This document shows, one piece after another, positions 7,065 through 62,629 of a stretch of 64,000 nucleotides of DNA. Within the stretch, counting starts at the first letter, position 1. Every line of letters begins with the position of its first letter. Under the pieces are notes generated by a model, which had not been told where the DNA came from, ran no database searches, and worked only from the letters and a program-made list of their open reading frames with translations. This DNA is from a virus: the IMG/VR virus record IMGVR_UViG_3300042397_000787; one strand, 5' to 3'. The translations under genes were made by a program, and so were the position numbers.

Positions 7065-7493
7065 AACTATTTAGCATCCGTAGATTCTTACATCACTCAT
7101 TTCATCGTATAAACCAAACAGGTGATAGTTTTATTCTGTTTCGAGGGAAAACTATCAAAAACCCAATGAGATTATGCGGCTAGCGCATATCCTGCAAAGG
7201 CAACGTTATCGTTTGCATTTACGTTTAGTGGCACTTTGCCAAGCAATCAGTCTCGAACCGCCCTATTACACGAAAATCGAATTCCAAGGTCACCCCCATC
7301 AACAAGAAACTCATCTAGGCAAGTACCGCAGCAAAAATCATCTTCTATTATACGCGCTCTTAAATCTTCTAGGTTAGTATACTGAGAGTCACGTATGTCA
7401 CGACAACTGCAAATTACCATAATTTCCTCTTGGTGGAGGTGCGGGGAGTCGAACCCCGGTCTTTCCGCCTTTATTGTTGATTGTCAACAACTG
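7065..7493 (-). ncRNA. ssrA: tmRNA, circularly permuted two-piece (alphaproteobacterial type); outer ends approximate
   Basis: Acceptor piece with T-arm GGTTCGACTCC and CACCTCCACCA ends at 7431. It lies upstream of the 5' end GGGGGTG (7297), which pairs with CACCTCC including the G3:U Ala determinant. Tag ORF ANDNVAFAGYALAA* at 7216-7172. Confidence 0.93.
7247..7420 (-). CDS. Bfd-like [2Fe-2S] small protein (57 aa) starting in the tmRNA intervening segment (not in ORF track)
   Basis: AGAGGA RBS; MVICSCRDIRD...FCCGTCLDEF matches the C-x-C...C-x2-C pattern of bacterioferritin-associated ferredoxins. Confidence 0.6.
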   Translation of the reverse strand: MVICSCRDIRDSQYTNLEDLRARIIEDDFCCGTCLDEFLVDGGDLGIRFSCNRAVRD

Positions 7494-7499
7494 ATAATC

Positions 7500-7507
7500 T
7501 ATTTATA
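7500..7507 (-). promoter_or_regulatory. T4-type late promoter upstream of tmRNA
   Basis: TATAAATA on the minus strand. Confidence 0.7.
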
Positions 7508-7546
7508 CACTAGTTTGCTTTGGAAGTCAACAGTTTTTTATATTCT

Positions 7547-9179: not shown

Positions 9180-9935
9180 TTATGCGTATCTCTCCTCATA
9201 TTCTAATCTGGCCAGAATATATTCTTTAACCAATTTGGACCTTACTATATCATGAACAGAAAACTCTACAGTTTTGAACGAGGGCATTAGTTCGGCGATA
9301 GCGATGAACTTTTGAAGTCCAGACATATCGGTCTTTTTATATAGATCAGTCTGTCGGAAATCTCCGCAGAATATGATCTTTGAGTTTCTGCCAATTCTGG
9401 TCATAATTGAATTTAATTCCATATCCGTCATATTCTGACATTCATCAACGATGACGATGGAATTATCTAGAGTGATACCACGAACAAATGAAGTGATCAT
9501 AAAGTTCACTGACTTTTGTTCTTGCAATCGCTGAAATGGCTGGATATGATTAAACAAATCCTCGCAGATTTCTACATAAGGTAACTGATAAACTTCTGTC
9601 TTTTCTTTTTCATCACCAGGTAGGTGACCAATTTCTCTTGATGGAACAGCAGAGCGGACTATTACTACTCGCTCAAATACTGTTTCTGGATCTAGTGCTT
9701 CTTCTAGTGCCTTAAAAAGCGCGATGTATGTTTTCCCTGTTCCTGCTACACCGTGAAGTAATATTGCTGCGGACTGTTGATTATAAAGTTCAAAAAATTG
9801 TCTCTGATTAAAGGTTTTTGGTTGAATATTTTTTAGGTCTTCGTATTTTACTTTGCATAGCTTACTCTTCTCTAGGGTTACGGGCGAGTCATTATTTGAG
9901 ACAACTTGTAAGGCGTTTTGTTTTCTTCTTGACAT
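9180..9935 (-). CDS. phoH: PhoH-like ATPase
   Basis: GVAGTGKT, IGHLPGD, RGITLD, VDECQN, TRIG, GD..QTD. Confidence 0.95.
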   Translation of the reverse strand: MSRRKQNALQVVSNNDSPVTLEKSKLCKVKYEDLKNIQPKTFNQRQFFELYNQQSAAILLHGVAGTGKTYIALFKALEEALDPETVFERVVIVRSAVPSREIGHLPGDEKEKTEVYQLPYVEICEDLFNHIQPFQRLQEQKSVNFMITSFVRGITLDNSIVIVDECQNMTDMELNSIMTRIGRNSKIIFCGDFRQTDLYKKTDMSGLQKFIAIAELMPSFKTVEFSVHDIVRSKLVKEYILARLEYEERYA

Positions 9936-9964
9936 AACAGTCCTTTGAGGTTTGAGGTTGATAC

Positions 9965-9997
9965 AAAAAAGGCGACACTGCAATAGCAGAGTCGCCT
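9965..9997 (-). terminator. Intrinsic terminator-like hairpin upstream of phoH
   Basis: AGGCGAC TCTGCTATTGCAGT GTCGCCT TTTTT. Confidence 0.6.
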
Positions 9998-10897: not shown

Positions 10898-12331
10898 TTA
10901 GGAAAAGACTTTTACCATGTATTTCGCCTCGAAATCATCCGCGTCTTTGAAGTTATTCACCATGGGCATACCCTTGATATTAAGACTAGTATTCAATAGC
11001 ATTGGACAGCCGGTTTCTTCATACCACCTACTAAGAAGTTCATACAGTCCAGAGTGTTGCTCTTTTGTCACAGTTTGGACGCGACTTGTACCATCAGCAT
11101 GGACAATAGCAGGAAACTGATCAGGATATTTACATCTTGAAGTATATTGCATATAAGGGGAGTCTTCCCATGACATCTCAAAGTAGTCTCTCGCATGTTC
11201 TGCCAAAATAACTGGAGCGAATGGCCGAAATTTTTGACGCTTTTTAATGGCATTTACTTTATCCTTAATGTCATGTCCTCTTGGATCAGCTAGAAGGCTG
11301 CGATTACCTAATGCTCTAGGACCAAATTCAGCTTGACCATTTGCAACTCCTACTATACTAGCCTTATGCAATTCTGTCAAGAGTTTTTCTACTGGATATT
11401 CTCCTCCCATATCTGCACCTAGATATGGACCCTTCCAGTTCAATTTTTGTCTGTTGTTAGCTGCAATCGCACCCAAAGAACTACCCGAATCTCCAGGATT
11501 AGGCATAATCCAGACATTATCAAAATACTTTCGTGCAATATGATTTGCACTACAGTTTAACGCACAACCACCCATAAGAACGAGATTATTTTGTCCGGGG
11601 TCTTTCATTTTTGCTCGTATCAGAAGTTTTTCGAATTCTTCTTCATAGACTTTTTGAGTTGCCGCAGCGACACTATAAATGTCCAGGTCTCCATCATCTG
11701 GCCTCCACCAGCGACATCCACGATGCAGGTTCTCAGATTTCCAAAGATTTTTTACTTCATCATAATACTTTCCAGGATCACCATATGCTACCATTCCCAT
11801 TAAGATATATTCGTCTTCATTGGGCTTTAACCCAATTCTATCTGTCATAGCAGAATAGAACAGGCCCAAAGACTTGGGATAGTCCATAGACCATTTCTTT
11901 TTGAGTTTACTACCAGAACATTTCCAGATTGATGCAGTATCGAATTCCCCAATAGCATCAATAACAAGAGCGGTTGCATCATCATATGGCGAAGTGTAAA
12001 AGCCAGCAGCGGCATGTGACTCGTGGTGATAAGCAAACTCTACCGGAATATCTTTTAGACCAAAATGTTCAAGATACTGCCTGACACTAAATCGAATCAG
12101 TCCCTGACCGGCTAACAGTCTTCTCATTGCCCTAAGTTTAGGCTTTTCATACCAGTGAATTTTTTCTGGTTTGCCAAATTTCAAAGCAGCATGAATTAAA
12201 TCATCATTTAAGTCTTTGTCGTTTTTGATACCAGAATATCTTTCTGCATGGGAAGCAAACAAAATTTCATTGCCAGAAACAACAGTCAAAGACGCATCGT
12301 GTGCGGCCGCAGATATACCCCATTCAATCAT
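10898..12331 (-). CDS. Carbamoyltransferase (NodU/CmcH family)
   Basis: HDAS, HHESHAA, DAIGE, GGCALN, EFGPRALGNRS, RPFAP, LLNTSLN. Confidence 0.95.
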   Translation of the reverse strand: MIEWGISAAAHDASLTVVSGNEILFASHAERYSGIKNDKDLNDDLIHAALKFGKPEKIHWYEKPKLRAMRRLLAGQGLIRFSVRQYLEHFGLKDIPVEFAYHHESHAAAGFYTSPYDDATALVIDAIGEFDTASIWKCSGSKLKKKWSMDYPKSLGLFYSAMTDRIGLKPNEDEYILMGMVAYGDPGKYYDEVKNLWKSENLHRGCRWWRPDDGDLDIYSVAAATQKVYEEEFEKLLIRAKMKDPGQNNLVLMGGCALNCSANHIARKYFDNVWIMPNPGDSGSSLGAIAANNRQKLNWKGPYLGADMGGEYPVEKLLTELHKASIVGVANGQAEFGPRALGNRSLLADPRGHDIKDKVNAIKKRQKFRPFAPVILAEHARDYFEMSWEDSPYMQYTSRCKYPDQFPAIVHADGTSRVQTVTKEQHSGLYELLSRWYEETGCPMLLNTSLNIKGMPMVNNFKDADDFEAKYMVKVFS

Positions 12332-12339
12332 AAAGAATC

Positions 12340-13215
12340 CTATTTTGGTTTTATCAAATAATCATATATTTCGGTAGCAAACATTTTGTGGGCTTCGATG
12401 CCAGCATGTCCATAAGCACATCTTTCACCCTTATATTTATACATTGAGCCAACAGGTACAAAATTCAATCTATCAAATGTATCTTTATAAATCGTTTTTA
12501 GACGTTTAATTAAATCAATGTCTGTTTTTGTTTTTAAGAATTTTAAATTAGAATGCTGACTAGATGGATCATCAGGATAAGGAATGTAGGGATGCGTTTC
12601 TATAAAAATATGTGGTATATTTTCTTGGTGTAAAGCAGTTTGTATTGACCGTAAAATAATCATATTGTTCAGGGCCACTTGATATTCGTTATTAATTTGT
12701 ATCAGTGCATCATATAAGGTCTCTAGTTTATTTAATGTATGTCTATGAGACATAATAAAGTTGTGTAAATTACCTTCTTCATCTATGATCATATCTCTTA
12801 CAGGAGATGTCGCTCCTATAAATACCACATCTCCATCTTTGTAATAACCATTTGCTATATCCGACAGTATATTAAACAATATCTTTTTTTGAGAAGTGCC
12901 TGGTTCAGCAAAGTTCACATATTCCGTGGATAACATATCACTAAGATGTTTTGCGTATGAATATTGATTGCACAATTTCACATATCGGTCATTAGCTGAT
13001 TCCGAACACCTTGGATCTAACATGGCATAAACTTTACTGTATAGTTGTGCGTTCCAGTTGCTGCGCCCATATCTCATTTTCAAAGTATTGACTTCTTTGA
13101 GCGACATATCGAATATATCCGCATCTGCCAATTCGGACCCAGCAGTATTGGAACAGCCATAAAAAATTGTTCTTTTTATGTTGCATTCTTCAATATTATG
13201 GTATCGGATCGACAC
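12340..13215 (-). CDS. SGNH/GDSL-like hydrolase or acyltransferase
   Basis: FYGCSNTAG, NFAEPGTS, C-terminal GHAGIEAH. Confidence 0.5.
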   Translation of the reverse strand: MSIRYHNIEECNIKRTIFYGCSNTAGSELADADIFDMSLKEVNTLKMRYGRSNWNAQLYSKVYAMLDPRCSESANDRYVKLCNQYSYAKHLSDMLSTEYVNFAEPGTSQKKILFNILSDIANGYYKDGDVVFIGATSPVRDMIIDEEGNLHNFIMSHRHTLNKLETLYDALIQINNEYQVALNNMIILRSIQTALHQENIPHIFIETHPYIPYPDDPSSQHSNLKFLKTKTDIDLIKRLKTIYKDTFDRLNFVPVGSMYKYKGERCAYGHAGIEAHKMFATEIYDYLIKPK

Positions 13216-14329
13216 TTAGCTCATTCCACAAGTTATAAAATTTTATGTCTTTTTTAAGAAATTTTGTTTCTAATTCTTCAATCCAAGAATCTAATTGTAT
13301 CGTTTCATCTCTAACATTTGTAACTTCATTGTCGTCAACATGAGATAGAAGACTTTCTCTGATATTTACCAATTGAATGATATCAGAAGAAAAGTAGGAT
13401 TCATATTTGTCGATGCATATATCTAACTGATCTATTGCTAATTTTTTTATTTCAGGCGTAGCAGCAAAAATATTAAGTGAACGAGGAGAAGTCAATAGCT
13501 GAAATGTAATACCGTCATAATAGTCGCTGTAGTAAACATAATCACAGAATTCCACTAAACTTAAAGCACTGGGCAAACAATAGGTTGCATGAATAGTAAG
13601 TTTACTATCACTAAAATTTCTAATATATTTTACATTTTCCTCAAATGCATTCCATTTTGCACCATGTCTAATATATTCGAATTTGTCCTTAATAGTTTCA
13701 AAGCTAACTGCCCACTTAACTTTTTTTCCTAGAGTTAATAGCTTTTTAGCAACGTCATTGTTTTTAACATCTACCGCCATATTAGATAGGACATAGTAAA
13801 ACTTGTCAGGTAAAATATCAATTAAATCCAAATTTTGCTTCTGTAGTAGAGGCTCACCCCCTAGAAGTTGCACACTAAAAACGTCATCTGCATTCTGTTT
13901 TATAAACTCAAGCAATTGAGCATCGGTATCTTTCGAGTTCTTTTCAAAATTGTCTTGGAGTATAGATGCCCACTTAGAACTAAATTGTGAGTTACAGTAA
14001 ATACAACTTAGGTTACATGTGTTGTCCCATCTTAGATCCAGGGATGTCAATTGAAAATCTGTTGGTTCAGAGAAGTTTTTAGGATTAGTAATCTTTCGTT
14101 GTGATATACTTCCTCCTTTTTCTGCCAAATCACAATAAGAACAATAACTTTCTGGTTGGCCAAGTAGAATATTTTCACGAATTTTATTAGCCTTTTTCCC
14201 TAGTAACATCTCAGAAGGATTGTCTTTTTTTATGTTACCCAAAGGAAAAGAGCCAGCACAACAGAACTTAATATCTCCGTTGGTGTTGAGAAATAATCCA
14301 GTAAAAGGATATTCACAGAATTTATTCAT
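13196..14329 (-). CDS. Radical SAM protein with N-terminal SPASM/twitch-like Cys domain
   Basis: CNLSCIYC, GGEPL; N-terminal C..P...CC...CxxC. Confidence 0.92.
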   Translation of the reverse strand: MNKFCEYPFTGLFLNTNGDIKFCCAGSFPLGNIKKDNPSEMLLGKKANKIRENILLGQPESYCSYCDLAEKGGSISQRKITNPKNFSEPTDFQLTSLDLRWDNTCNLSCIYCNSQFSSKWASILQDNFEKNSKDTDAQLLEFIKQNADDVFSVQLLGGEPLLQKQNLDLIDILPDKFYYVLSNMAVDVKNNDVAKKLLTLGKKVKWAVSFETIKDKFEYIRHGAKWNAFEENVKYIRNFSDSKLTIHATYCLPSALSLVEFCDYVYYSDYYDGITFQLLTSPRSLNIFAATPEIKKLAIDQLDICIDKYESYFSSDIIQLVNIRESLLSHVDDNEVTNVRDETIQLDSWIEELETKFLKKDIKFYNLWNELSVDPIP

Positions 14330-15191
14330 TAATCAAATACTTATATAGTTCTTCTGCCATCACTTGGTGTTCAGAAATTTTAGGATGACCGAAACCACAA
14401 TATTTTGGATGAGGCTCTAATGCATTCCAATTTCTACCATATTCATAACTCTTAAAATAATAATCAAGTTTCATGATGGAGGGCAAATCTTTACTTTTTT
14501 CTGCTATACGATACATATTTGATTGATAGAAAGTCGGATCTGAAATCCCTTTGAAAATATTATTGTAGTTAGTGGTGACATGAAAACTTTTTACTCTACC
14601 ATTTGTTCGATGGTAGAGATTATCAATATATTGAATTTGCCAGTAGGCATCCCAGCATATTTGATATGTGTTTCCCACGGTAGCTACATAATCTTTGTGA
14701 AATTTCGGCGAGGGCCAATCCGCATGATATGACAATAACGGCTTCTTCGTTATTCCATTCTCATTTAACCAAAACCATCTATTAGCACTTGTTAATCCAA
14801 ATAGAACTAAGTCTTTATCTCCGATTTTCCCAGTGGCCAGGTCTTCCTCATAGCAGTATATTGAATACTCCATGCCTGCTCCACCAAGCCCTCTGTTTAT
14901 CCAAGGAACGCCAAACTTATCTGCCAGCCAACGCGGCCATGCCACTTCTTTGGTACGGCGTATCTGTTCGCCCCAATCCCATCTGCCGTTCTCATCGAAT
15001 AAAGTTTTATCGGAACAATACTTCGGATTATAATATTTTGTATTCCACTCAGGACAGTATAATCCGCCCAAGTCAATTTTTGTTTTATCAACTTCGTATT
15101 CCGTTAACGCATCAACAAAAACATGATCTAGCGTTTCATCACCGGCAGTCATACTACAACCATAAGCAATGATTCTATCGAATTCAATCAT
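14322..15191 (-). CDS. SGNH/GDSL-like hydrolase or acyltransferase
   Basis: AYGCSMTAG, NRGLGG, GHPKISEH. Confidence 0.5.
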   Translation of the reverse strand: MIEFDRIIAYGCSMTAGDETLDHVFVDALTEYEVDKTKIDLGGLYCPEWNTKYYNPKYCSDKTLFDENGRWDWGEQIRRTKEVAWPRWLADKFGVPWINRGLGGAGMEYSIYCYEEDLATGKIGDKDLVLFGLTSANRWFWLNENGITKKPLLSYHADWPSPKFHKDYVATVGNTYQICWDAYWQIQYIDNLYHRTNGRVKSFHVTTNYNNIFKGISDPTFYQSNMYRIAEKSKDLPSIMKLDYYFKSYEYGRNWNALEPHPKYCGFGHPKISEHQVMAEELYKYLINE

Positions 15192-15291
15192 AAATGAACG
15201 GGTCCTGCTTTCGGATCTCAGCCAGTCTCTTTTTATACTTTTGCTTTAGAACATATGAATTATATAATCTTTGAATCCATTTAAACAACAT
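15184..15291 (-). CDS. 35-aa basic peptide ending DPFIYD (not in ORF track)
   Basis: MLFKWIQRLYNSYVLKQKYKKRLAEIRKQDPFIYD*; overlaps both neighbours, suggesting translational coupling. Confidence 0.65.
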   Translation of the reverse strand: MLFKWIQRLYNSYVLKQKYKKRLAEIRKQDPFIYD

Positions 15292-16453
15292 AAATTTCGT
15301 CCCTATTATTATTTTTACCACATGCTTCTGAGCAAACATAAAGTTTACCGTCAGAGCAGCTTTTCTTCTTCCATGTATCTTTCAGATTTTGATAGTAAAG
15401 ACCATCGACAATTGTTTGAAAGTTGCTAGTATTTAGATTGATGGAGGAAGTTCTTGTTTGAGAATAATGCCATTTTTTAAATTGATATTCATCAATTCTA
15501 TGATAGCTATTATTAATCGCACTATCAAACCAACAACATGGTAGTAAATCGCCACTAGAATTGACATAAAATGTTTTCTTGTTATTAGAATTGCATTTAG
15601 GTTCGATTTCAGTATGCTCTAGTTCACTGGTATATTCTTTTGGACTTCTGAATATCTTTTTAAAATCTTCATGTTCGTCTTCTATGCTCATAAAGATATC
15701 TCTTACATCAACAGCCGTTTTATCCATTCGCTCTACATCATAGTTTCTAAAAACGATGTTTCTTTCGTTGTCATATTGAAAAGACACTCTATATTTTTCA
15801 GATGGTGCCTGAATTGCATATTCAAACTTACCGGTAGCATCATGAACTGGAATACTACTAACACTCTCAAATCCTAGCGGTCGTTTCGCAATAAATTTTG
15901 CTCCAACACTCTCGGCCAAACTTTTAGCGTAATTAACCTGATGTTCATTGTGGGCAAATACTAAAAATTCCCAGACAATATTCGCACCAGTGGTAGTAGC
16001 GGCAATAAAATTATTAAATGCCGTATCCCATTTGACATTTCTACGATATATATGGTTGGTGTCTTCAAGCCCATCTATACTAAAGACGATATCTCCCTTG
16101 TATAATTCTGGATTGAATAACGCGCCCATTTTTTGCCAGAAATCTTCATTTCTAGTGCCACCGTTTGTGTGAAGTCTTATCGCTGATTTAGGCGACACTT
16201 CTCGAATATAGGAAACAATTTCGTGTAGATCCCTACACAATGAGGGATCACCAGAACTTCCGCATAAAATCCACACTTCAACTTTTTCACATACTTCCGG
16301 CGTGAACCAAGTTTTAAATTTTTCTAGACTAATCTGAGATAATTCAATCGTGCTTTTAGTTTTCCCACCCATCCAGTTACGTGTGCATCCGGGGCATGCC
16401 GCATTACAGTTATTGGTGAGTTCGATGTGTAACTCGTAAATATTAGGAATCAT
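15281..16453 (-). CDS. Radical SAM protein with C-terminal SPASM-like domain
   Basis: HIELTNNCNAACPGC, FSIDGL, LPCC...C...C. Confidence 0.92.
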   Translation of the reverse strand: MIPNIYELHIELTNNCNAACPGCTRNWMGGKTKSTIELSQISLEKFKTWFTPEVCEKVEVWILCGSSGDPSLCRDLHEIVSYIREVSPKSAIRLHTNGGTRNEDFWQKMGALFNPELYKGDIVFSIDGLEDTNHIYRRNVKWDTAFNNFIAATTTGANIVWEFLVFAHNEHQVNYAKSLAESVGAKFIAKRPLGFESVSSIPVHDATGKFEYAIQAPSEKYRVSFQYDNERNIVFRNYDVERMDKTAVDVRDIFMSIEDEHEDFKKIFRSPKEYTSELEHTEIEPKCNSNNKKTFYVNSSGDLLPCCWFDSAINNSYHRIDEYQFKKWHYSQTRTSSINLNTSNFQTIVDGLYYQNLKDTWKKKSCSDGKLYVCSEACGKNNNRDEIYVV

Positions 16454-17694
16454 CTATATGCTTCCAATTTTTTTGCCCAGTCTGGAAAGTATTCAGAAAA
16501 CTTTTGATTTTTATACTTATCATGTTTTTCTGAAATAACATAGAAATTGCTGAAATGTCTTTCCGAAGGCCTCTCTGACATTAAATGCGTAGTCACATTT
16601 CTTAGCGTATCAAAATTCCATTCATTAGCCTCTTTATATTCAGAAATATAAGATGTGATTTTTTGGATTAGCTCTAGCTTAATTTCTCTGGGCAAATTGG
16701 TTATCTTATAATGATCTGGCTTGTATAACATGTTATACCATATACCAGAATTCACTCCATATCTATTACGTATGAATCTATCAAACTCTGTGATGTGGTC
16801 AATATTAGCTATGCTTATAGTATAACAAAAACTAATCTTTATTGACGGATGTTTCCGACTTAACTCATGAAACTTGTCAATATTTGCAAGAACCACATCC
16901 CATTTTGCAGGATGTCTCATGTATTCAAATACCTGTTCTATTCCATCGATACTTAGTGCAATATCAGAGGTTTGAAACTGAGTGAAAACATCAATCTGTT
17001 TTTGACTAGGAAAAATTGTGCCATTTGTATTACAATGCAGGTACTGGGACTTACTTACCCCAGCTTCAATACACTTATGTAACATTTTCCATGGCTTAGT
17101 AATTAATAACGGTTCACCGCCATAAAAGTCAATTCTTTTAGATTGTAGAATCCATTGTTCAAATTCTTCCCACAATAATGGATTGTCATCCGAGTAACTT
17201 ATTCTCGCGGGCTCGAAGCGGGCAAGAAATTTTCTTTTATCTGCATATTCTTTTAAATATACATCATATTCTTCTGTTTGCCAAGCACTACTGCTATTTG
17301 AGTTGCACGTTCTACACCTTAAATTGCATGTATTACCAAACTTCATGTCAATATAGAACGGCGTTTCTGGGCCCATAACATCAGGATAATCCTGTTCATA
17401 TTTTTCCCACAAATGTTGCTCTCTCAGGCGCTTACTAATTTTTCCTCCAGCATTTTCTTCTTCCCAACAAGCAATACAATTGGGATGCTGAATGCCAGCA
17501 TCTAATGCTTCCAAAATTTCTCGTCTGTGATTGCTTTTCCAAAACTGACTAGGCTTATGCGTATTGAACCGCATCTCCTTGCCATCATCGTCTAATAATA
17601 CGTCTCTTGCCATGCAGCATGTTTTAGCATTGCCCATAGTCTCGGTTGCAATTCCATATTTGGCAGTCAGACAAGTTAATTTTTTGGTAGACAT
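16450..17694 (-). CDS. Radical SAM protein (twitch-type N-terminal Cys domain)
   Basis: CNLRCRTC, YGGEPL, NTNG, SIDG. Confidence 0.92.
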   Translation of the reverse strand: MSTKKLTCLTAKYGIATETMGNAKTCCMARDVLLDDDGKEMRFNTHKPSQFWKSNHRREILEALDAGIQHPNCIACWEEENAGGKISKRLREQHLWEKYEQDYPDVMGPETPFYIDMKFGNTCNLRCRTCNSNSSSAWQTEEYDVYLKEYADKRKFLARFEPARISYSDDNPLLWEEFEQWILQSKRIDFYGGEPLLITKPWKMLHKCIEAGVSKSQYLHCNTNGTIFPSQKQIDVFTQFQTSDIALSIDGIEQVFEYMRHPAKWDVVLANIDKFHELSRKHPSIKISFCYTISIANIDHITEFDRFIRNRYGVNSGIWYNMLYKPDHYKITNLPREIKLELIQKITSYISEYKEANEWNFDTLRNVTTHLMSERPSERHFSNFYVISEKHDKYKNQKFSEYFPDWAKKLEAYR

Positions 17695-18887
17695 TTTTCA
17701 GCCCAAGGATAGGTTTCAAACACATTCTGTTTTCTGATCTTATCAAGTAACTGTTGTTTCATAACAAAATTATTTTGAATAATAGGATTATGTAGATTAT
17801 CGGTTCTGGATTCCAGGTATTTGATGATAAATTCTACTGCTTGTTTATTTAAAGCATTAGTATTTTTCTGAACCTCAAAATATTCCCGCAATTCGTTCAA
17901 TCTAAGATTATAATTATCTTCGGGCATAACATCAGGCTGCAAAAAATCTGGACTATTAACAGGAATAACGGAACAGTGAATTCCAACCGTATCAAAGAAA
18001 CGAATCAAGTCTGCCATTGTATCCAAAGATAAGTTTTGTAATGTTGTGCTTATGGTAGCATGAATGTTTTGATGTTCTTGCATAATGGTTTTGTAAGTCA
18101 ATAAGTTCTTTTCGATTTTTTTCCACCTACCAGGAAATCTAATATATTCAAACGTTGACTTATAACCATCAATACTAAGGCCGAGATGAACTTCTCTAAA
18201 CTGTTTCCAGTAGTCGATAAATTCATACGGGTTGTTCATTCCGTTGGTATTATAGTGTAGCGCAATGTTTTTTGCCGCACCAGTCTCGCATAAAAATTGT
18301 AGTAGCTTAAGGTTTTCATCAATGATTAGCGGTTCACCGCCTATCAAATAAATTTGTTTGATAGTATGAATATGTTGTGACAATACCTCATTGATATCTA
18401 CGGCATCAATCCACTTTGTATCCGACCAACTAGACTGATAATATTGTTTTGCTTCCGGGTGTTCATCTACTTCCTTACGAATCAGAGAACTACTGAACGG
18501 CCCACACATTCTGCATTTAAGATTGCACTTGGCATCCAAATCAAATTCAACTTTTACAATACCAATAGGCTCTGGACTTTTTTCAGCCACAATCCTATCA
18601 TATTCTTTACGAAAGACTGAATTCGCATAATCTCTAAAACTCTTATTACCAGAGTCTTCGATATTCCAGCATCGTGAGCAAAGTTCTGGCTTATTCCCCT
18701 TTAACATTTCATCTCGCAGATACGACATGGTTTTTGTTTTCAGTAATGTATTCACATCATAGTTTTCTTTGTCTTTGATGTTTTCTTGAACTTGTTTTGA
18801 GCCAATCGCATTGCAACAAGGCCTAAATTCCCCGTGTGAGCCAATGCTCAAATTCATCCAGGGATATACGCAAATAGTATCTGACAT
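17676..18887 (-). CDS. Radical SAM protein (twitch-type N-terminal Cys domain)
   Basis: CVYPW..RPCC, CNLKCRMC, GGEPL, SIDG. Confidence 0.92.
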   Translation of the reverse strand: MSDTICVYPWMNLSIGSHGEFRPCCNAIGSKQVQENIKDKENYDVNTLLKTKTMSYLRDEMLKGNKPELCSRCWNIEDSGNKSFRDYANSVFRKEYDRIVAEKSPEPIGIVKVEFDLDAKCNLKCRMCGPFSSSLIRKEVDEHPEAKQYYQSSWSDTKWIDAVDINEVLSQHIHTIKQIYLIGGEPLIIDENLKLLQFLCETGAAKNIALHYNTNGMNNPYEFIDYWKQFREVHLGLSIDGYKSTFEYIRFPGRWKKIEKNLLTYKTIMQEHQNIHATISTTLQNLSLDTMADLIRFFDTVGIHCSVIPVNSPDFLQPDVMPEDNYNLRLNELREYFEVQKNTNALNKQAVEFIIKYLESRTDNLHNPIIQNNFVMKQQLLDKIRKQNVFETYPWAEKCLPKN

Positions 18888-20137
18888 TATTGTACCTCGT
18901 TTACGTGATTTCTATTATTACCCAATTCACCCTGATCCAGTTTATTGAATTCTAAACCACAACAAGAACTGCATTGATGACTGCGCATCGAACTACCACG
19001 CTCGAAACTCATCGGTAGATATCTTTGAAAATATGCAGTATTAATAATTTCTTCTAAAGTATGCTTATGAAGATCCAGTGAGTCCATACCACCATTAAGT
19101 TCGATCATTTTAAGCGAGTTATCATTAGGATTTGACCATTGCGCACCAAATCTCCATGGTTCTCCGCCTAGAAAACAACAAGGGAAAACATGACCTGTGG
19201 CAGACAAGAACACTTCGTTGTTTTTCTGGTGTTCATTAATCTTTGCTCGACACATAATACCCAAAGAGTTGTGTTTAATCTTAATTGTTTCGTTGGAGTC
19301 GGGATCATGATTTACTAAAAACTCTTCTGTGTTTTCAGGCATCAATCTACCAAATTCTTCATTTGTGATATATTGTGGAATAAGATTCTTTATTGCTTTT
19401 GCAAAAACAACATCATTTTGATGCTTTAGTCTCTCTTCTTCCGGTTGCTTGATGTAGTATGAGGAACCATCTGGATTTCTAACTCTGTAGTACCCTCTTC
19501 CGGCTGCATCATATCCTTGCCATCTAGTTGTTCTTTTAATATTGAAAGTTCTAAAATTCAATTCTTTTGCGATGGCCTTGGCTTCGTCAATTTGATGCTC
19601 ATTAAAATCAAACGCGATAAAGTCCCATTTAGCTATGCCGCCTGCGGCAGTAAATGCTTTCATATTAGCATGAATTTTAGCAAAATTGGTATTTCTTCTG
19701 TATAGGTGATTTGTGTCCCATAAGCCATCAACAGAAAAAGTTACACCATCATCTCGTTGATTTTCTCCGTTGAGAATTTGACCTAGTTCTTTCCACCAAC
19801 CTTCCGATCTAGCACTAGCATTTGTGTGCATTACTAATGAGAGATATGGGTTATTTTCTCGCAAATACTTGAATATTGGCAAAGTATCTTTAGCAGTAAT
19901 AGGATCTCCATAATTCCCACATGCATACACCCGTCTAAGTTGTGAAACAAACGGAATAGGAAACCATTCTTTGAATTGTTCTAGAGAAATATCTGTTAGA
20001 TTTAGAAGAGGATTGATTTCTTTACCCTGATTGATATAACGAGGACACATAGGACATCCTGCATTACATTTATTAGATAATTCAATGTGCATCGCAGTAA
20101 TATTGCGCCACGATTTGTATAGTGGTTCAACTTGCAT
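18887..20137 (-). CDS. Radical SAM protein with C-terminal SPASM-like domain
   Basis: HIELSNKCNAGCPMC, CGNYGDP, FSVDGL, FPCC. Confidence 0.92.
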   Translation of the reverse strand: MQVEPLYKSWRNITAMHIELSNKCNAGCPMCPRYINQGKEINPLLNLTDISLEQFKEWFPIPFVSQLRRVYACGNYGDPITAKDTLPIFKYLRENNPYLSLVMHTNASARSEGWWKELGQILNGENQRDDGVTFSVDGLWDTNHLYRRNTNFAKIHANMKAFTAAGGIAKWDFIAFDFNEHQIDEAKAIAKELNFRTFNIKRTTRWQGYDAAGRGYYRVRNPDGSSYYIKQPEEERLKHQNDVVFAKAIKNLIPQYITNEEFGRLMPENTEEFLVNHDPDSNETIKIKHNSLGIMCRAKINEHQKNNEVFLSATGHVFPCCFLGGEPWRFGAQWSNPNDNSLKMIELNGGMDSLDLHKHTLEEIINTAYFQRYLPMSFERGSSMRSHQCSSCCGLEFNKLDQGELGNNRNHVNEVQ

Positions 20138-21533
20138 TTTCAGTTAATTCCTTGCACATGTGGTAAAAATCCTTGTATTCAGGAAAAGTTTCTATTAGAT
20201 TAAGCCCAGGAGAACGTTTGTCATATTCGGAAAAGAACTTATAGAAGTCCTTGCGACCGGTTTCGATTAATTCAGGAGTAATCCTAGGTCCACCAGTCAC
20301 AAAGTAATTTCTTACTCGCTTTAGCTTTTCCCATTCATGTTCATTGAATCCAAACTCCATTCCGTATGGAGTAATACGCTGCTTGATGAAATCAAGGTCC
20401 TCATCGATATATGATACCCATTCTGGCGGAAGAAGATTAATCATCCAATGTGGTGGTTCTTTTAGATACGGCGTATCAAATCCAATACGCTCTTTACCCC
20501 ACTTATCGCGAAGTTCTAATATCTTTTCTAAGAATGGACGGAAAGAAGCAACACACAGAATGTTGTAGGTACACATAAAACTAATGTTTGCTTTTGGAAC
20601 AATTCTTAGATATGTTTCTACGTTCTGCAAGAAAAGATCCTGATCCAGACCTCTGCGCATATATTCTGCCTTCGGTCCCCACGATTCTAGACTTGTGTAA
20701 AGTTTGAAATCCTTAATTTTCTTATTTTCGATCATCGACTTTACTGTTTCAGCAAACTTTGTCACTCGATTATTCGAAACGCCAAGATTACTATTCAAAT
20801 TCAATTCAAGATGCTGAGTACCATCACCCTCTTCAATCAATTTAAACAACTTCATTGTGTTTGAGTTGATAAGTGCTTCGCCGCCCGTCAGGCGAAGAAC
20901 ACGGAGATCCTTCTTTAGGTCAGGCCACCACTTCCAAAATGCCTCGATGTAGGGATTGTATTCGTCATCTCTATACACCTTACTAGTTTCTAGATATTCA
21001 ATCCCATACTGATTATAACTAATGTCATAATTACCATGCTTGCGGATTTCATCTTCCCATAGTGAAGATGCTTGTGGACAGCAATAACCACACTTAAAAT
21101 TACAACCTGCACCAAAACTAACTTCAAGGAAGTAAGGATTGTAGTCTGCATCCCATGCCGTATTCTTAATCATTTCAGTTTCAGCGGCGGCATCTATCCA
21201 ATGACTTGCATTATGAAACATTCTATCGCTAAAATTTTCGCCAGGAAGATTTTCTACGTTCCAGCAGTAGTAACATTCTTCTGGACGTCCGCCCTCAAGC
21301 ATAATTTTACGCTGTTCTTTCTTCCACTTCGTATTATGAAGTGCAGAAGGATTTTCAGCAATTTCTTCTAAAGGAATATGACGAGGGCGAGGATGATAAC
21401 AACTGTGATTGTCGCCCATATGAAGATACAGAGTCTCGTGGCGCCATTTTTGCAGACAAAATCCATTACCCACTGTATTCAGTGTATCTCGGACTTTTTT
21501 TACCTTATTAATATATTCTAAATTATCACTCAT
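20127..21533 (-). CDS. Radical SAM protein (twitch domain)
   Basis: FCLQKW..HSCYHP, CNFKCGYC, TGGEA. Confidence 0.92.
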   Translation of the reverse strand: MSDNLEYINKVKKVRDTLNTVGNGFCLQKWRHETLYLHMGDNHSCYHPRPRHIPLEEIAENPSALHNTKWKKEQRKIMLEGGRPEECYYCWNVENLPGENFSDRMFHNASHWIDAAAETEMIKNTAWDADYNPYFLEVSFGAGCNFKCGYCCPQASSLWEDEIRKHGNYDISYNQYGIEYLETSKVYRDDEYNPYIEAFWKWWPDLKKDLRVLRLTGGEALINSNTMKLFKLIEEGDGTQHLELNLNSNLGVSNNRVTKFAETVKSMIENKKIKDFKLYTSLESWGPKAEYMRRGLDQDLFLQNVETYLRIVPKANISFMCTYNILCVASFRPFLEKILELRDKWGKERIGFDTPYLKEPPHWMINLLPPEWVSYIDEDLDFIKQRITPYGMEFGFNEHEWEKLKRVRNYFVTGGPRITPELIETGRKDFYKFFSEYDKRSPGLNLIETFPEYKDFYHMCKELTENAS

Positions 21534-22962
21534 TAATCAGGCCTTCGCATTCTTCAATAAATTCTATCATTTCTGGAAATGTTTCTTTGAGGTTAGTCTT
21601 ACGCCGCTTATCATGTTCTCTAAAATGCATAGTGAAGTTTTTCTTATGAAGAATTTCTTCATCTTTAGGCATTGGTTCAACTGCCCAGTCATAAAGGCGC
21701 TTTACTTTGTCAATTTCATAATCTTTGAAACCCTTAAATCGATTTGATACGGTCTCTTTGTTTTGCTCCATAAATTCGATACTATTTAGCAAAGGCTGCA
21801 ACATCTCTTTAGATGCCAACTTTAGACTCAGCCACTTAGGATCAGTAAGCATAGGAGTATCAAACCAAACCAACTGTCTATCCGTATTATACTCTTGACG
21901 CAATCTTAAAATATTTTGAAAGTATGTCATCCAATTCGGTAAACATAGAATGTTACATGTCACAATAAAGGTTAGAGAATGCTTTTCACCTTCACTCAAA
22001 AATTGTGTGATGTTTTTATAAAGAACATCAAAATCCATACCTGTCCGAATATACTCTGCCTGTTTTCCCCAACTATCGAGACTACAGAAGAGCATGAAGT
22101 GATCGATTGCATCCTGATCTGTGATTTCTTTCAAGTCATCCATAAACTTTTGCCACTGTCCTTTTGGAGGGCAACAATTGCTAGTAATACTTAGCGTCAA
22201 ATCTGGTTTTGGATTTTTCTTGACATGGTCAAAAATCTTAAAAGTATTCTTATCCATCAAAGGCTCGCCGCCTGTCATACGAAATGTCTTTAACTTGTCA
22301 TATACAGTAGGAAACCACTCCCAGAATGCAACAAGATATGGATTTACAGGAGAATTATCCGGCACCCAACCCTGTTCTTTCATCCAACCATCGTCATTAT
22401 GAGTTCTATCGAAAAGCCGATATGGACCATGCTCTTTAATTTCTTTATGCCACTCTGTAGACAAATGAGGGGAACAATATGTGCATTTTAAATTGCAGGC
22501 CTGATTAAAGTTGACTTCCAAATATTTGGGGGCAGGATTTCCTTCAAACCCAACTGCTAACGCTTCATCGATAATACCCGGCGAGTTAACATCAAAACTG
22601 CGATACGCTCTATCGCTCATATTACCAGTATCTTCGATATCCCAACAGAAAGAGCATTCCGACGGTCTTTCGCCTAGTAACATCTTCTTTCGCTGTTCTT
22701 TCTTGTATTTTGTGTTATGTAAAGCACCTGGATCTGCCGCAAGTTCCTCTAAAGGAACCTTATGGGTTCTAGGATGATAGCAACTATGAGTTCTGCCAGT
22801 AGGAATATGAATGCTGACATTAAACCACTTTGCAAGACAAAAGGAAGGACTTACTTTGTTTAAGCCTTCCAGCATATCCTTAGTGTTGTCAAAGTAAACA
22901 CTCTTGTATGCTCCATCTAGATCGGCAGTTACTTCATCACCGCGTTGATTTTCATCGTTCAT
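21526..22962 (-). CDS. Radical SAM protein (twitch domain)
   Basis: FCLAKW..HSCYHP, CNLKCTYC, TGGEPL. Confidence 0.92.
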   Translation of the reverse strand: MNDENQRGDEVTADLDGAYKSVYFDNTKDMLEGLNKVSPSFCLAKWFNVSIHIPTGRTHSCYHPRTHKVPLEELAADPGALHNTKYKKEQRKKMLLGERPSECSFCWDIEDTGNMSDRAYRSFDVNSPGIIDEALAVGFEGNPAPKYLEVNFNQACNLKCTYCSPHLSTEWHKEIKEHGPYRLFDRTHNDDGWMKEQGWVPDNSPVNPYLVAFWEWFPTVYDKLKTFRMTGGEPLMDKNTFKIFDHVKKNPKPDLTLSITSNCCPPKGQWQKFMDDLKEITDQDAIDHFMLFCSLDSWGKQAEYIRTGMDFDVLYKNITQFLSEGEKHSLTFIVTCNILCLPNWMTYFQNILRLRQEYNTDRQLVWFDTPMLTDPKWLSLKLASKEMLQPLLNSIEFMEQNKETVSNRFKGFKDYEIDKVKRLYDWAVEPMPKDEEILHKKNFTMHFREHDKRRKTNLKETFPEMIEFIEECEGLINE

Positions 22963-24296
22963 AGGGTATTACACCATTCTAAAAATTCTTTGAATTCTGG
23001 AAATACTTCCACTAGGTTGCTTTTGCTTCGTCTATCGTATTCTGGGAAAAACTTAGCAAAATCTCGTCTGGCATTTAGACGATACGTATCATCAATTGCA
23101 TGTTCATCGTTATAAAAGTAATCTCGAATACGTAACATCTTTTGACGTTCTATATCAGTAAACCATTCAGACTCCTGAATGAATTTCAAGTCAGAATCGA
23201 TATACTTACCGAAATCTTTAGTTAGAATATTGATTGTCCAGTGTGGCGGTTCTTTAAGATGTGGAATATCAACAATAATTCTATCTTTGCCCCATTTTTT
23301 TCTAAGTTCCACAATATAATCTAAGAAGTCTCTGAAATACGGTACTACAAGATTATTATACGTTACCATAAAGGACATGTAAGCAGTTGGGACCAATTCT
23401 AGAACGGTGTCAACATTCTTCTTAAACAACTCGTAGTCCAGACCACGCCGAATGTATTCAGCTTGTTTACCGGTGCATTCAATACTGGTAAAACAACGAA
23501 AATTCTTAATCTTATTGTTATCTATAAGTTCTCGAACAGTATTACTTACTTCAACAACTTTTCGATTGGTTACACCGAGATTGGTATTAATCTGCAACAT
23601 AAGGTCAGAATTACCCTCGTCACGCAACGTCTCTAACAGACGATATGTATTGGTGGTCATCAGAGGTTCACCACCAGTAATACGGAAAATCTTCAACTCT
23701 TTTTTTAGTTCTGGCCACCATTTCCAAAATGCTTCCACATAGGGATTATATTCTTTCTCAGAATATATTTTCTTTCCTCTAGTTCCATATGGACTGTCTG
23801 TTAGATCATAGTCACCAAATTCTTCAAGTTCTTGTTCCCACATAGAAGAAAAAGATGCAGTGCAATATCCACACTTGAAATTACACGCATTACTAAAACT
23901 AATTTCCATGTTGTATGGATTTACGTTCTGATCCCATGGAGTATTGCGTAGAAGTTCGGTTTCTTCATTAAGATCAAAAATAGGATTAATTTTATCAATA
24001 TTCTTCAATACGCGGTCGCTGACCTTACCAATCTTTTCAATATTCCAACAATATGAACAACCAGGCGGTTTACCACCAGAAAGCATATACTTTCTAGTGA
24101 ATTTCTCATAAAGTGTGTTGTGAAGAGCGGCTGGATCTTCCTCAATTTCTTCCAGCGGAATAATTCTAGGACTAGGATGATGGCAGCTATGCTTGTCACC
24201 CGAATGCAGATACAGCGCAAGCCATCTCCACTTCTGTGGACAAAATCCCTCGCCTACAGAATTTAGTGTGGTTAAAGCATCATCTATTTCACTCAT
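22959..24296 (-). CDS. Radical SAM protein (twitch domain)
   Basis: FCPQKW..HSCHHP, CNFKCGYC, TGGEPL. Confidence 0.92.
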   Translation of the reverse strand: MSEIDDALTTLNSVGEGFCPQKWRWLALYLHSGDKHSCHHPSPRIIPLEEIEEDPAALHNTLYEKFTRKYMLSGGKPPGCSYCWNIEKIGKVSDRVLKNIDKINPIFDLNEETELLRNTPWDQNVNPYNMEISFSNACNFKCGYCTASFSSMWEQELEEFGDYDLTDSPYGTRGKKIYSEKEYNPYVEAFWKWWPELKKELKIFRITGGEPLMTTNTYRLLETLRDEGNSDLMLQINTNLGVTNRKVVEVSNTVRELIDNNKIKNFRCFTSIECTGKQAEYIRRGLDYELFKKNVDTVLELVPTAYMSFMVTYNNLVVPYFRDFLDYIVELRKKWGKDRIIVDIPHLKEPPHWTINILTKDFGKYIDSDLKFIQESEWFTDIERQKMLRIRDYFYNDEHAIDDTYRLNARRDFAKFFPEYDRRSKSNLVEVFPEFKEFLEWCNTL

Positions 24297-60177: not shown

Positions 60178-60260
60178 TGGTAGGCACGGCGGGACTCGAA
60201 CCCGCAAGGTTTCCCGACGAATTTTAAGTCCGTTGCGTTTACCAATTTCGCCACGCGCCC
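60178..60260 (-). tRNA. tRNA-Leu(TAA)
   Basis: Cloverleaf with long variable arm, CT-TAA-AA loop, GTTCGAG, encoded CCA. Confidence 0.93.
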
Positions 60261-61147
60261 AAATTCTGACCCCATGTGGTGTCAGTCATTTCGTAGTAGA
60301 CATAGTTATCAACTAACGTCTTATTTAGACCCAGAGAAACAAGCCAGTCTGAGTAAGTTGATTTACTATCACCCATCATTTTTCTGACTTGCCGGTGTAT
60401 ACCATGTGTAGGACTGTTTATACTCAAACAAAATTGTATTTGTTCATTTACGTATTCATCTACATTACCATCTATGCTCAAATGATCCAATACACTACAT
60501 ACAGCATACTCTGGCGAATCCAGAAGGTCATCGTCTACAAAAAAGTAATAATAATGCCATTCTGCCATTGGAATGATGCCATCATCCTGCATAAAAAGAT
60601 ATTCAAACAACGGATGCTCTATCGCAGTCTTTACATAAGACGTTGTAGCAGCAAACGGAGCCTCAAGCACCCCGGGATGTCTTCTAGGTGCAACCATACC
60701 AGTTTTAGCGGCAATAAAATTTGTCCACTTTCTTGGTAGATACATTTCACTTCGTTCTTCTGGGTAAATGTATCTGCCATTACCATGTTTAAATGGCCAC
60801 TCATCCAGATTAGTAGGACGGACAAAAATGTTTTTGCAGTCAAGCACAAGTACCGTATCATCCAGAGATTGTGCGGCTGTAGTCAACTTCAACATCTGTT
60901 GTCTGCGCCACCCAAAAGTAAACGGTTGATCAAAATGTAAATAATTCTCACGTTTAGAAAACGCTAGATTAAGTTTGTGTCGGGTATAATACGGAGCCAA
61001 AATGTTATGCCATTCTTCTGGTGTTAAGGATTCATCCTCAACTGTAATCCAATGGCGACATGGCTTCTCAATAAACTTATCAATTGAGTGGGCCTGAAGT
61101 AGAAGGTCTTGAATATCCCTCTCACAGGCAATAGTAACTATATCCAT
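60239..61147 (-). CDS. DUF6492-like (glycosyltransferase-fold) protein
   Basis: GWRRQQMLKL, VLDCKN.F.RP. Confidence 0.6.
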   Translation of the reverse strand: MDIVTIACERDIQDLLLQAHSIDKFIEKPCRHWITVEDESLTPEEWHNILAPYYTRHKLNLAFSKRENYLHFDQPFTFGWRRQQMLKLTTAAQSLDDTVLVLDCKNIFVRPTNLDEWPFKHGNGRYIYPEERSEMYLPRKWTNFIAAKTGMVAPRRHPGVLEAPFAATTSYVKTAIEHPLFEYLFMQDDGIIPMAEWHYYYFFVDDDLLDSPEYAVCSVLDHLSIDGNVDEYVNEQIQFCLSINSPTHGIHRQVRKMMGDSKSTYSDWLVSLGLNKTLVDNYVYYEMTDTTWGQNLGAWRNW

Positions 61148-62031
61148 TAGCAGTCCATATATTGTTTAACTAATTCATCATTCAGCCCAAGTGATAGAAG
61201 CCATTCTGTATAGAACATACCAGTTTTACTCGGAAGGTTTTCTCTCACGGTTTTATGTAAGCCATGAGTTGGGCTGTTAATATTCAGGCATCTTTCAACA
61301 TCGTTTCTGATACTCTGATCATACCGTCCCTCTATCATATCAAAGGGACTGATTGCATTACATATAATATCTTTTTCTTCTGGTAGTTCATCAGGATCAA
61401 CATAGAACATATACGTATGAAACTCCGAGTTTGGAGTAACATCTTGATTTAGAAAGAGTGCTTCCAAATCAAAGTCTTCTGCCATTTGCTGAACTATTTT
61501 CTTCTCAAAGACAAATGGTGTTTCTAACAAACGACCAAACTTATCTGGTATTTGTTTACCAGAAATCTCACTGAAATATAATAGCCATCCTTGTATGATA
61601 TCATGGTTAGTACCAGTGAAAATTGTATCTCTAGTCAGATATGCACCATTACCATGCTTTACTGGCCAAGAATATAGGTCAGTGGGTCTAACAAATAAAT
61701 TTTTAGAATCTAGAACTAATGCATGGTCGCTTATAACATGATCACTGGTGGTAAGAAGTTTTAAGTATTGTTGCCTTCTCCAGCCATGCCCAAATCTACC
61801 CCAATCCGCAAAGACAGCATCCAAGGTGGGGTCTCTACGATAAGTATTTAATCTAAGGGTATGCTTTGTATAATACGGCGACAAGATATCTTGCCATTGA
61901 TCAAGCGAAAGATGTGTATCTTCTACCGTGACGAAATGTGTTATAGGCTTCTCAATAAACTTATCAATTGAATGTGCTTGTAGAAGAAGGTCTTGAATGT
62001 CTCTTTTACAAGCAATAGTAACTAAATCCAC
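61147..62031 (-). CDS. DUF6492-like protein, tandem paralog
   Basis: GWRRQQYLKL, VLDSKN.F.RP; near-identical N-terminus. Confidence 0.6.
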   Translation of the reverse strand: MDLVTIACKRDIQDLLLQAHSIDKFIEKPITHFVTVEDTHLSLDQWQDILSPYYTKHTLRLNTYRRDPTLDAVFADWGRFGHGWRRQQYLKLLTTSDHVISDHALVLDSKNLFVRPTDLYSWPVKHGNGAYLTRDTIFTGTNHDIIQGWLLYFSEISGKQIPDKFGRLLETPFVFEKKIVQQMAEDFDLEALFLNQDVTPNSEFHTYMFYVDPDELPEEKDIICNAISPFDMIEGRYDQSIRNDVERCLNINSPTHGLHKTVRENLPSKTGMFYTEWLLSLGLNDELVKQYMDC

Positions 62032-62044
62032 AATTATCTCCTAA

Positions 62045-62122
62045 TGGGGTGAATGACGGGACTCGAACCCGCGACATTCGGCATCACAAGCCGACACTCT
62101 AACCAACTGAGCTACATCCACC
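62045..62122 (-). tRNA. tRNA-His(GTG) with G-1 and C73
   Basis: G-GTGGATG...TT-GTG-AT...CATTCAC-C-CCA. Confidence 0.93.
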
Positions 62123-62143
62123 ATACTCAGGAATACTTATAAC

Positions 62144-62232
62144 TGGCGGAACATCAGGGAGTCGAACCCTGTATACCCTTTAGAGGTATTACGCATTAGC
62201 AGTGCGTTGCATTACCGTCCTGCCCATGTTCC
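62144..62232 (-). tRNA. tRNA-Ser(GCT)
   Basis: CT-GCT-AA loop, long variable arm, G73-CCA. Confidence 0.92.
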
Positions 62233-62238
62233 TAAAAT

Positions 62239-62313
62239 TGGTAGCCCGAACGGGTTTCGATCCCGCTTCTCCGCCTTGAAAGGGCGGTGTCCTAGCCACT
62301 AGACGACCGGGCC
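62239..62313 (-). tRNA. tRNA-Glu(TTC)
   Basis: CT-TTC-AA loop, CCA. Confidence 0.9.
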
Positions 62314-62316
62314 ATT

Positions 62317-62391: not shown

Positions 62392-62395
62392 ATTA

Positions 62396-62473: not shown

Positions 62474-62474
62474 T

Positions 62475-62546: not shown

Positions 62547-62547
62547 G

Positions 62548-62623: not shown

Positions 62624-62629
62624 ATCTTA

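Follow-up and report, generated by a model that had tools for sequence, protein, structure and literature searches.

The spacer of a two-piece transfer-messenger RNA (tmRNA) is excised during maturation, and bacterial Bfd is a small protein that releases iron from bacterioferritin. The locus described here raises the question of whether such a spacer can carry a gene for a relative of Bfd, from which message that gene would be translated, and why it should lie there at all. The DNA is a stretch of 64,000 nucleotides (nt), IMG/VR virus record IMGVR_UViG_3300042397_000787, which at its full length is called the window throughout and is part of a T4-like freshwater phage genome. A first-pass annotation, made from the sequence and its open reading frames (ORFs), had described a gene for a Bfd-like iron-sulphur (Fe-S) protein nested in the intervening segment of a tmRNA gene, and had suggested that the tmRNA precursor (pre-tmRNA) doubles as its mRNA. 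Our analysis makes it probable that the excised spacer holds a minimal Bfd-type gene, translated from the tmRNA precursor and perhaps encoding an iron or Fe-S helper.

Results

As first annotated, the CCA of the tmRNA acceptor piece is followed at once by AGAGGA, four further nucleotides and the ATG of a 57-codon ORF, and direct reading of the strand returned every coordinate of this description. The product begins MVICSCRD, and its Cys4, 6, 30, 31 and 34 are all encoded in the intervening segment (7430-7298). The frame runs past G1 of the tmRNA coding piece (7297) to a stop 51 nt inside that piece, in line with the earlier estimate of about 50 nt. A word-indexed search recovered close copies only, 16 variants of 86-96% identity on dozens of lake metagenome contigs. 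Conservation of the ORF and its ratio of nonsynonymous to synonymous substitution (dN/dS) had been named at first pass as checks, and both speak for a gene. Among nine haplotypes of the clade the first 40 codons hold 20 variable sites, distributed 2/3/15 over the first, second and third codon positions (chi-square p 4e-4), and pairwise dN/dS between these close relatives is 0.05-0.24; the alternative frame +2 of the same haplotypes gives ratios of about 1-3 and contains stops. Between the distant nested lineages (the window, L085, L091/L132 and L133; L numbers denote loci) saturation has been reached at synonymous sites, with dN at about 0.2.

The protein belongs to a wider family. An exhaustive HMMER profile search of 1.84 billion representatives with residues 1-43 found 90 clusters at E<=1e-3, comprising proteins of about 50 residues, nearly all of 45-90, in which the match starts at the protein's own Met1. 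They share the pattern M-[IV]-[IV]-C-x-C-R-[ND]-I ... C-G-x-C. In a 92-row alignment C6, R7, D28 and C31 are invariant, and M1, C4, I9, L20, R23 and C34 are conserved in at least 90%. The first-pass annotation had placed four putative ligand cysteines in the intervening segment; their location stands, but the set has to be corrected to C4, C6, C31 and C34, because C30 varies across the family. Residues 42-57, the part specified by the tmRNA coding piece, are not constant: variants differ in them or have a shifted frame there. This division is repeated in the AlphaFold2 (AF2) model, whose predicted local distance difference test (pLDDT) is 84-89 over residues 1-30 and 51-56 in the tmRNA-encoded tail (a shallow 12-row alignment gave a pLDDT of just 57), and a folded core of about residues 1-40 is predicted. 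One of the 92 family members matches a PHROGs family, which is unnamed. The codon pattern, the selection on the protein and the breadth of the family indicate that the ORF is almost certainly a genuine translated gene.

The tmRNA around it also appears intact. ARAGORN places a permuted tmRNA (tmRNA*) with the tag ANDNVAFAGYALAA* on the minus strand at 7526-7081. The Rfam model RF04321 (tmRNA_permuted), whose gathering score is 47, is matched by 7492-7172 with 95.8 bits over model positions 1-213 of 213. The gene order is permuted, from an acceptor piece with CCA (7433-7431) through the spacer to the coding piece, the tag frame of which ends in hydrophobic residues and the 3' part of which pairs with the acceptor piece. 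The 7-bp acceptor stem, 7297-7291 GGGGGUG with 7441-7435 CACCUCC, contains the alanine identity pair G3(7295)-U(7437), equivalent to G3-U70. Compared with loci L002-L011, the T-stem (7435-7465) shows double compensatory changes, C-G to G-C and G-C to A-U, and the ORF-bearing tmRNA itself is therefore under selection. To judge from the Rfam score, the intact tag frame, the G3-U70 pair and these compensatory changes, the two-piece tmRNA is probably functional.

Kinship of the ORF product with Bfd is indicated by profile comparison. When the family profile is aligned by hhalign with E. coli Bfd alone, all four cysteines fall in register across a 9-residue gap (P 4e-4, probability 35%), so that C4, C6, C31 and C34 align to the four Bfd cysteines in the pattern C-x-C ... 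C-x2-C. With a diverse alignment of 13 accepted Fer2_BFD members, enterobacterial Bfd included, the match rises to 97.3% (E 1.9e-11). This value is inflated, because nine of the 13 rows were picked by the N-terminal motif that the family itself has; the alignment of the C-terminal C-G-x-C helix to Bfd does not depend on that choice. Scanning viral contigs with a back-translated motif also brought up short phage proteins that form a gradation towards the canonical domain, the Fer2_BFD (PF04324, gathering score 26 bits) scores of short and intermediate forms being 16 bits in L095, 20 in L113 and, above the threshold, 32 in L122. In 185,579 cellular genomes, one per species, the N-terminal DNA motif has 34 matches, of which about 27, from Alpha- and Betaproteobacteria, look like full-length Bfd, and all eight of those tested pass Pfam at 35-56 bits. 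Fer2_BFD is also the commonest family among the weak Pfam matches of the phage family, occurring in 7 of 92 members (best E 0.028). Three of the ten nearest family sets in the ESM Atlas carry it at template modelling (TM) scores of 0.47-0.50, one of them a 57-residue stand-alone Bfd cluster (TM 0.47 over 43 residues).

Several results pull the other way. The Fer2_BFD search proposed at first pass gave no match at E<=1 for the window protein, for which Pfam returned noise only (TRASH and DAN, E 0.13). The family lacks 8-9 residues of the canonical domain, a deletion that hhalign places after residue 15-16, so that the cysteine pairs are 24 residues apart in the window protein and about 31-35 in Fer2_BFD. 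Foldseek found no match to the AF2 model in the PDB, a wide VIA search gave helical matches only (Z<=3), a family-profile sequence search of the PDB yielded nothing meaningful and an Atlas feature search gave no usable match. No cultured phage was matched by tblastn of residues 1-43 against 50,697 phage records. The original description as a Bfd-like Fe-S protein consequently survives as remote homology, while Pfam membership by score does not. We consider the protein very probably homologous to Bfd and, as far as its sequence tells, it is a shortened, phage-specific offshoot of Bfd and not a strict Fer2_BFD member.

The gene appears to have no message of its own. The tmRNA is preceded by a TTGACT-17-TATAAATA site, sigma-70-like by reading and also matching a T4-type late motif, and the near-identical tmRNAs of L097 and L089 are preceded by the same arrangement; because the promoter scanner demanded a second hexamer ending in T, this site is absent from its list. 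The scan found no promoter-like site on the minus strand between 7492 and 7420, that is from the tmRNA start to the ATG, which leaves the pre-tmRNA as the only evident mRNA. Since the only evident promoter is that of the tmRNA, and the Shine-Dalgarno (SD) sequence lies directly behind the CCA, the message is most probably the tmRNA precursor. The suggestion that the pre-tmRNA doubles as mRNA is borne out to this extent, and the gene is very likely translated from it.

Within this transcript the SD sequence is predicted to be paired. The spacer forms an extended imperfect hairpin with a minimum free energy (MFE) of -64.3 kcal/mol (z -3.3 against shuffles), and in both the MFE fold and the consensus fold of 10 nested loci the acceptor stem continues via C-A-A/U-U-G into an 8-bp helix, in which AGGAAAUU (7428-7421) pairs with AGUUUCUU (7311-7304, codons 37-39). 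The GTTTCTT of the anti-SD is invariant in all nested relatives, and the pair 7430:7302 next to the SD helix changes from A-U to U-A in L091/L132. A paired SD sequence could signify little translation, which is a consideration against expression of the gene.

The position of the gene was compared across 41 unique 40-codon phage variants, drawn from the motif scan, a tmRNA-pattern scan and metagenome contigs; the motif scan had yielded 67 loci, and all ORFs at its matches belong to the family. Of the 41 variants, 32 lie next to or in a co-oriented permuted tmRNA according to ARAGORN and Rfam, with 18 upstream, 13 nested and one downstream, and the usual place of the gene in the relatives is beside the tmRNA, not within it. 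The upstream copies lie immediately 5' of the acceptor piece. In L087-type loci the last gene codons overlap the acceptor piece, inside which the copy ends. The closest upstream-layout relatives, L089 and L097, have the -35/-10 of the tmRNA (TTGACA, 17 nt, TATAAATAG) within the last gene codons, and here the gene is outside the tmRNA transcript and has an ordinary stop. The single downstream copy (L126) starts just past the tmRNA. Four of the nine variants without a tmRNA lie beside tRNA genes; the one in L104 has its ATG 9 nt after the end of the tRNA. A tree of the 40-residue core, of weak resolution though with a clear outline, places canonical-like and tmRNA-free forms at the base and all nested forms in one supported clade together with upstream forms, so that one to three moves are required.

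More distant family members lie away from any tmRNA. One of them, P0049 (70 residues; L146:1501-1713, plus strand), sits on an apparent bacterial chromosome, with a 2-oxoglutarate (2OG)-Fe(II) oxygenase gene on one side and transthyretin-like, LysR and urate-oxidase genes on the other; the short form is therefore not strictly viral.

The tmRNA is found without the gene even among close relatives. L097, in which the gene is upstream, and L033 and L066, which have no gene, carry an acceptor piece almost identical to that of the window around a plain 45-80 nt hairpin spacer; in L033 (6074-6431) and L066 (1861-2218) this spacer is a perfect 45-nt hairpin, and no Bfd-like gene was found within 8-12 kb of the tmRNA. 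L033 and L066 thus show presence/absence variation of the gene relative to the window, and the existence of near-identical tmRNAs without it means that the tmRNA can dispense with the gene. A family gene is missing from all 50 further permuted tmRNAs of phages that were chosen by T-arm/CCA matches without regard to ORF, and the idea that the tmRNA requires the protein was rejected on this count. The cultured phages Mosig, BUCT-ZZ01 and RpAliso likewise have no family ORF at their permuted tmRNA. The gene tracks the tmRNA locus, and the dependence is one-sided.

Other phage tmRNAs hold other genes in the same place. An SD sequence (TAAGGAAG or AAAGGAG) directly after the CCA is followed by unrelated ORFs of 39-122 codons in L100, L101, L119/L094, L151, L177, L235 and L239, all of which except L119/L094 have the leader TAAGGAAGTTT after the CCA. 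The spacer ORFs of L119 (3446-3637, minus strand) and L094 (153-338, minus strand) start MPVDMYYYTESEW behind AAAGGAG or TAAGGAG, and their first 25 codons differ at 16 nt, 15 of them third positions, with no amino-acid change; both loci also bear a Bfd-like gene just upstream of the tmRNA. In L100 (6302-6496, minus strand) the stop of the spacer ORF abuts G1 of the coding piece. In L101 (538-906, plus strand) the spacer product has 122 residues with weak GNAT-like matches (E 0.03), and the tmRNA gene spans 622 nt. A literature search found no paper describing protein genes in phage tmRNA spacers. Because relatives hold the Bfd-like gene upstream or downstream and other phages hold other small spacer genes, we propose that the spacer and tmRNA flanks would be a permissive, strongly transcribed slot, which may account for the presence of the gene there.

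A different arrangement was seen in L029 and L058, which share a tRNA-like-domain mini-gene of about 85 nt (GGGGGTGG..TTCGAC, T-arm, CCACCA) that ARAGORN does not call; a conserved 104-residue membrane-protein ORF follows it directly.

The surroundings of the gene in the window are rich in Fe-S functions, as noted at first pass. An Fe-S_biosyn gene (IscA-like, A-type carrier) lies two genes upstream at 8503-8123. From 10898 to 24296 on the minus strand runs a co-oriented, tightly packed array that encodes, besides a carbamoyltransferase, seven or more Radical_SAM-type proteins, one with SPASM; seven Radical_SAM matches fall at 13.2-24.3 kb, two just under the Pfam cut-off. In relatives 2OG-Fe(II) oxygenases occur near the locus. 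Together the carrier, the Radical_SAM matches, the carbamoyltransferase and the oxygenases of the relatives make an iron-supply role plausible. On this reading the protein would help, as a small ferredoxin-like protein, to supply iron or Fe-S, for example by releasing iron from host bacterioferritin. The four cysteines on balance suggest that it binds a 2Fe-2S cluster; that it serves iron supply we put forward more tentatively, as a possibility still short of an even chance.

Against such a role stand several points. The IscA-like neighbour was considered as a conserved partner and rejected, being absent from most relatives. The shortening of the domain argues against a strict Bfd role, and so does the invariance of R7 and D28, which suggests that the protein has a partner of its own. 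At the residues that we take to be the contacts of Pseudomonas Bfd to bacterioferritin, Tyr2 and Leu5, the window protein has Val2 and Ser5. Finally, zinc is an alternative ligand for the four cysteines. Among the genes examined near the locus, which covered about 5.8-24.3 kb and not the whole window, none was seen to be bfr.

The features of the locus are collected in Table 1. The window further contains a PhoH gene (9180-9983), and close relatives of the locus are flanked by a PD-(D/E)XK nuclease gene and by genes for a cell-wall hydrolase, a gp33-like coactivator, gp59 and gp32. Ten tRNA genes (Leu, His, Ser, Glu, Gly, Cys, Ile, two Lys and Met) are clustered on the minus strand at 60178-63328.

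Table 1. Features of the nested gene and its permuted tmRNA in window coordinates
Feature	Position	Strand	Details
tmRNA promoter	7500..7530	-	TTGACT (7530-7525), 17-nt spacer, TATAAATA (7507-7500); read by eye
tmRNA acceptor piece	7431..7492	-	5' stem-loop, T-arm, 3' acceptor strand, ACCA ending at 7431; RF04321 positions 1-64
Intervening segment, 133 nt	7298..7430	-	Insert in the Rfam alignment; carries SD sequence, ATG and ORF codons 1-41
SD sequence AGAGGA (7430-7425) and AATT (7424-7421)	7421..7430	-	SD sequence starts one base after CCA
Shortened Bfd-like four-Cys gene (predicted), 57 codons	7247..7420	-	ATG 7420-7418, TGA 7249-7247
Anti-SD AGTTTCTT, codons E37-F38-L39	7304..7311	-	Pairs with the SD sequence at the base of the spacer hairpin
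tmRNA coding piece	7081..7297	-	5' acceptor strand (GGGGGTGA) from G1 = 7297; tag frame 7216-7172, TAA 7174-7172

Discussion

The reading of the locus as a Bfd-type gene in a tmRNA spacer has to be weighed against others. That the ORF is untranslated, its conservation reflecting an RNA hairpin required for tmRNA processing, is very improbable: the spacer does fold as a long hairpin (z -3.3), and several inner pairs are preserved via G-C to G-U changes, but a purely structural constraint leaves unexplained the three-fold codon periodicity, a dN/dS near 0.1, the saturated synonymous sites beside a conserved protein and the existence of 90 related clusters of proteins, of which many do not lie in a tmRNA. 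If a protein is made, it could be a small factor binding zinc or another metal and acting with the phage tmRNA or the ribosome, as tmRNA cofactor, chaperone of the two-piece RNA or modulator of host trans-translation, and not an iron-handling ferredoxin. Such a factor would explain why the gene stays beside the tmRNA, to which it is tightly linked across three layouts down to about 45% protein identity, and the invariance of R7 and D28, which are not cluster ligands, as well as the absence of the bacterioferritin-contact residues, is consistent with it. Nevertheless the linkage is one-sided, as the sampled tmRNAs without the gene demonstrate, and near-identical tmRNAs manage without it; distant members lie off the tmRNA, one of them in a bacterial metabolic neighbourhood, and C-x-C ... 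C-G-x-C with an N-terminal M-I-V-C is the signature of Bfd and not of a zinc-ribbon. We regard this alternative as improbable, though less so than an untranslated ORF, and retain the Bfd-type helper.

The geometry of the locus also invites a regulatory explanation, suggested at first pass as a coupling of tmRNA maturation to Bfd synthesis or iron status, in which RNase P cleavage at 7297 would leave a non-stop spacer message whose product is tagged by tmRNA and degraded, full-length protein arising only from unprocessed precursor or when trans-translation is saturated, which would tie the amount of protein to the maturation or activity of the tmRNA, according to a logic like that of ArfA. ArfA is regulated in this way (PMC3985003). 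All the nested lineages seen (the window, L085, L091, L133 and products P0019, P0022 and P0023) have their stop within the mature coding piece, an L087-type upstream copy likewise ends inside the acceptor piece, and the tmRNA-encoded tail looks dispensable because it is variable and modelled at low pLDDT. The shared frame may, however, have been inherited from one ancestor, as the tree allows a single origin of nesting; other spacer ORFs, such as that of L100, stop just before G1; and the protein needs no such control, because in L089 and L097 its gene is outside the tmRNA transcript and has a normal stop. On this evidence such regulation is unlikely.

The probable expression of the Bfd-type gene from the precursor can be outlined as follows. 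Ribosomes would load during transcription, before the anti-SD is made, or at moments when the helix has opened, and would have to be off before the acceptor stem forms. The 5' acceptor strand would be covered by a ribosome at the end of the ORF, so that folding and the RNase P cut at 7297 would wait, and each transcript would serve as mRNA first and as tmRNA precursor afterwards; a precursor cleaved first would yield a message without a stop codon. That the SD-hiding helix allows a brief co-transcriptional burst of translation, and that translation and tmRNA maturation are thereby coupled on one RNA, seems to us doubtful. If true, the Bfd-like product of a precursor cut too early would be tagged by the very tmRNA just set free, and the coupling would join ribosome rescue and an iron-sulphur protein in a feedback or self-referential timer.

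Dual-function RNAs and tRNA-mRNA co-transcripts such as SgrS/SgrT, RNAIII/hld and the tRNA-tufB operon give a protein and a non-coding RNA from one transcript. Unlike these, the coding part here is enclosed by the two halves of a single RNA molecule's gene and shares 51 nt with the mature RNA. Two-piece tmRNAs are known in aquatic T4-like myophages, namely Methylophilales phage Melnitz and Pelagibacter phage Mosig (PMC9004378). The Melnitz and pelagimyophage tmRNA and that of the window are alike in being a permuted ssrA of alphaproteobacterial type that an early or late promoter precedes, and the neighbourhood is the same, with a PD-(D/E)XK nuclease upstream and gp33-like coactivator, gp59 and gp32 downstream (PMC9004378). 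That report describes the tmRNA and a glutamine riboswitch and, unlike the window, no protein gene in or beside the spacer (PMC9004378).

An ORF within an excised piece of stable RNA has a counterpart in the Coxiella burnetii 23S rRNA intervening sequence (IVS), which carries the ORF S23p (PMC4990558). The likeness is that the ORF lies in a piece of stable-RNA precursor excised without religation, and S23p is suggested not to be made, whereas the window ORF has an SD sequence and is under strong protein-level selection. In contrast to the IVS as treated there, the host RNA here is tmRNA, the reading frame enters the mature RNA and the SD sequence is built into a stem. Regulation of ArfA by mRNA cleavage and trans-translation has been established experimentally (PMC3985003). 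Its likeness to the proposal above is that a cut within the frame would produce a non-stop message, with the product tagged by tmRNA; the window case follows from geometry alone, unlike ArfA, and the nuclease would be RNase P acting at the tmRNA 5' end.

Like the phage family, Bfd (PF04324, e.g. E. coli b3337) is small, stand-alone and starts M-x-[IV]-C-x-C, and both have the second cysteine pair, C-G-x-C, at the start of a helix. The N-terminal M-I-[IV]-C-x-C-R-N-I is identical in the phage family and in the Pfam-passing alpha- and betaproteobacterial Bfd. The phage family differs in the 8-9 residues fewer between the cysteine pairs, in scoring below the Pfam cut-off and in its invariant R7 and D28, and also in being phage-borne and tied to tmRNA instead of bfr. 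The Bfd-family domain and the ORF in an excised stable-RNA spacer are each of an already known kind. New are the adjoining of gene and tmRNA in 32 of 41 variants, the absence of the gene from near-identical tmRNAs and the pairing of the SD sequence with codons 37-39.

The spacer of a two-piece tmRNA is treated as discard RNA. In this phage it holds a gene whose protein is under strong purifying selection; the ribosome-binding site of the gene forms part of the spacer's closing stem, and its stop codon falls within the mature tmRNA. The locus is thus a cloneable test case for one transcript shared between translation and stable-RNA maturation, and allows us to ask whether trans-translation polices a message cut from its own precursor. 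For annotation it matters that, at such loci, the calls of gene callers and those of tmRNA finders at present overlap without being reconciled. If the coupling outlined above is true, a general rule would follow in which the spacers of phage two-piece tmRNAs are regulated expression slots. For the phages themselves, the analysis defines a phage-specific shortened branch of Bfd, which may be a new iron-supply auxiliary gene of abundant, radical-SAM-rich freshwater T4-like phages.

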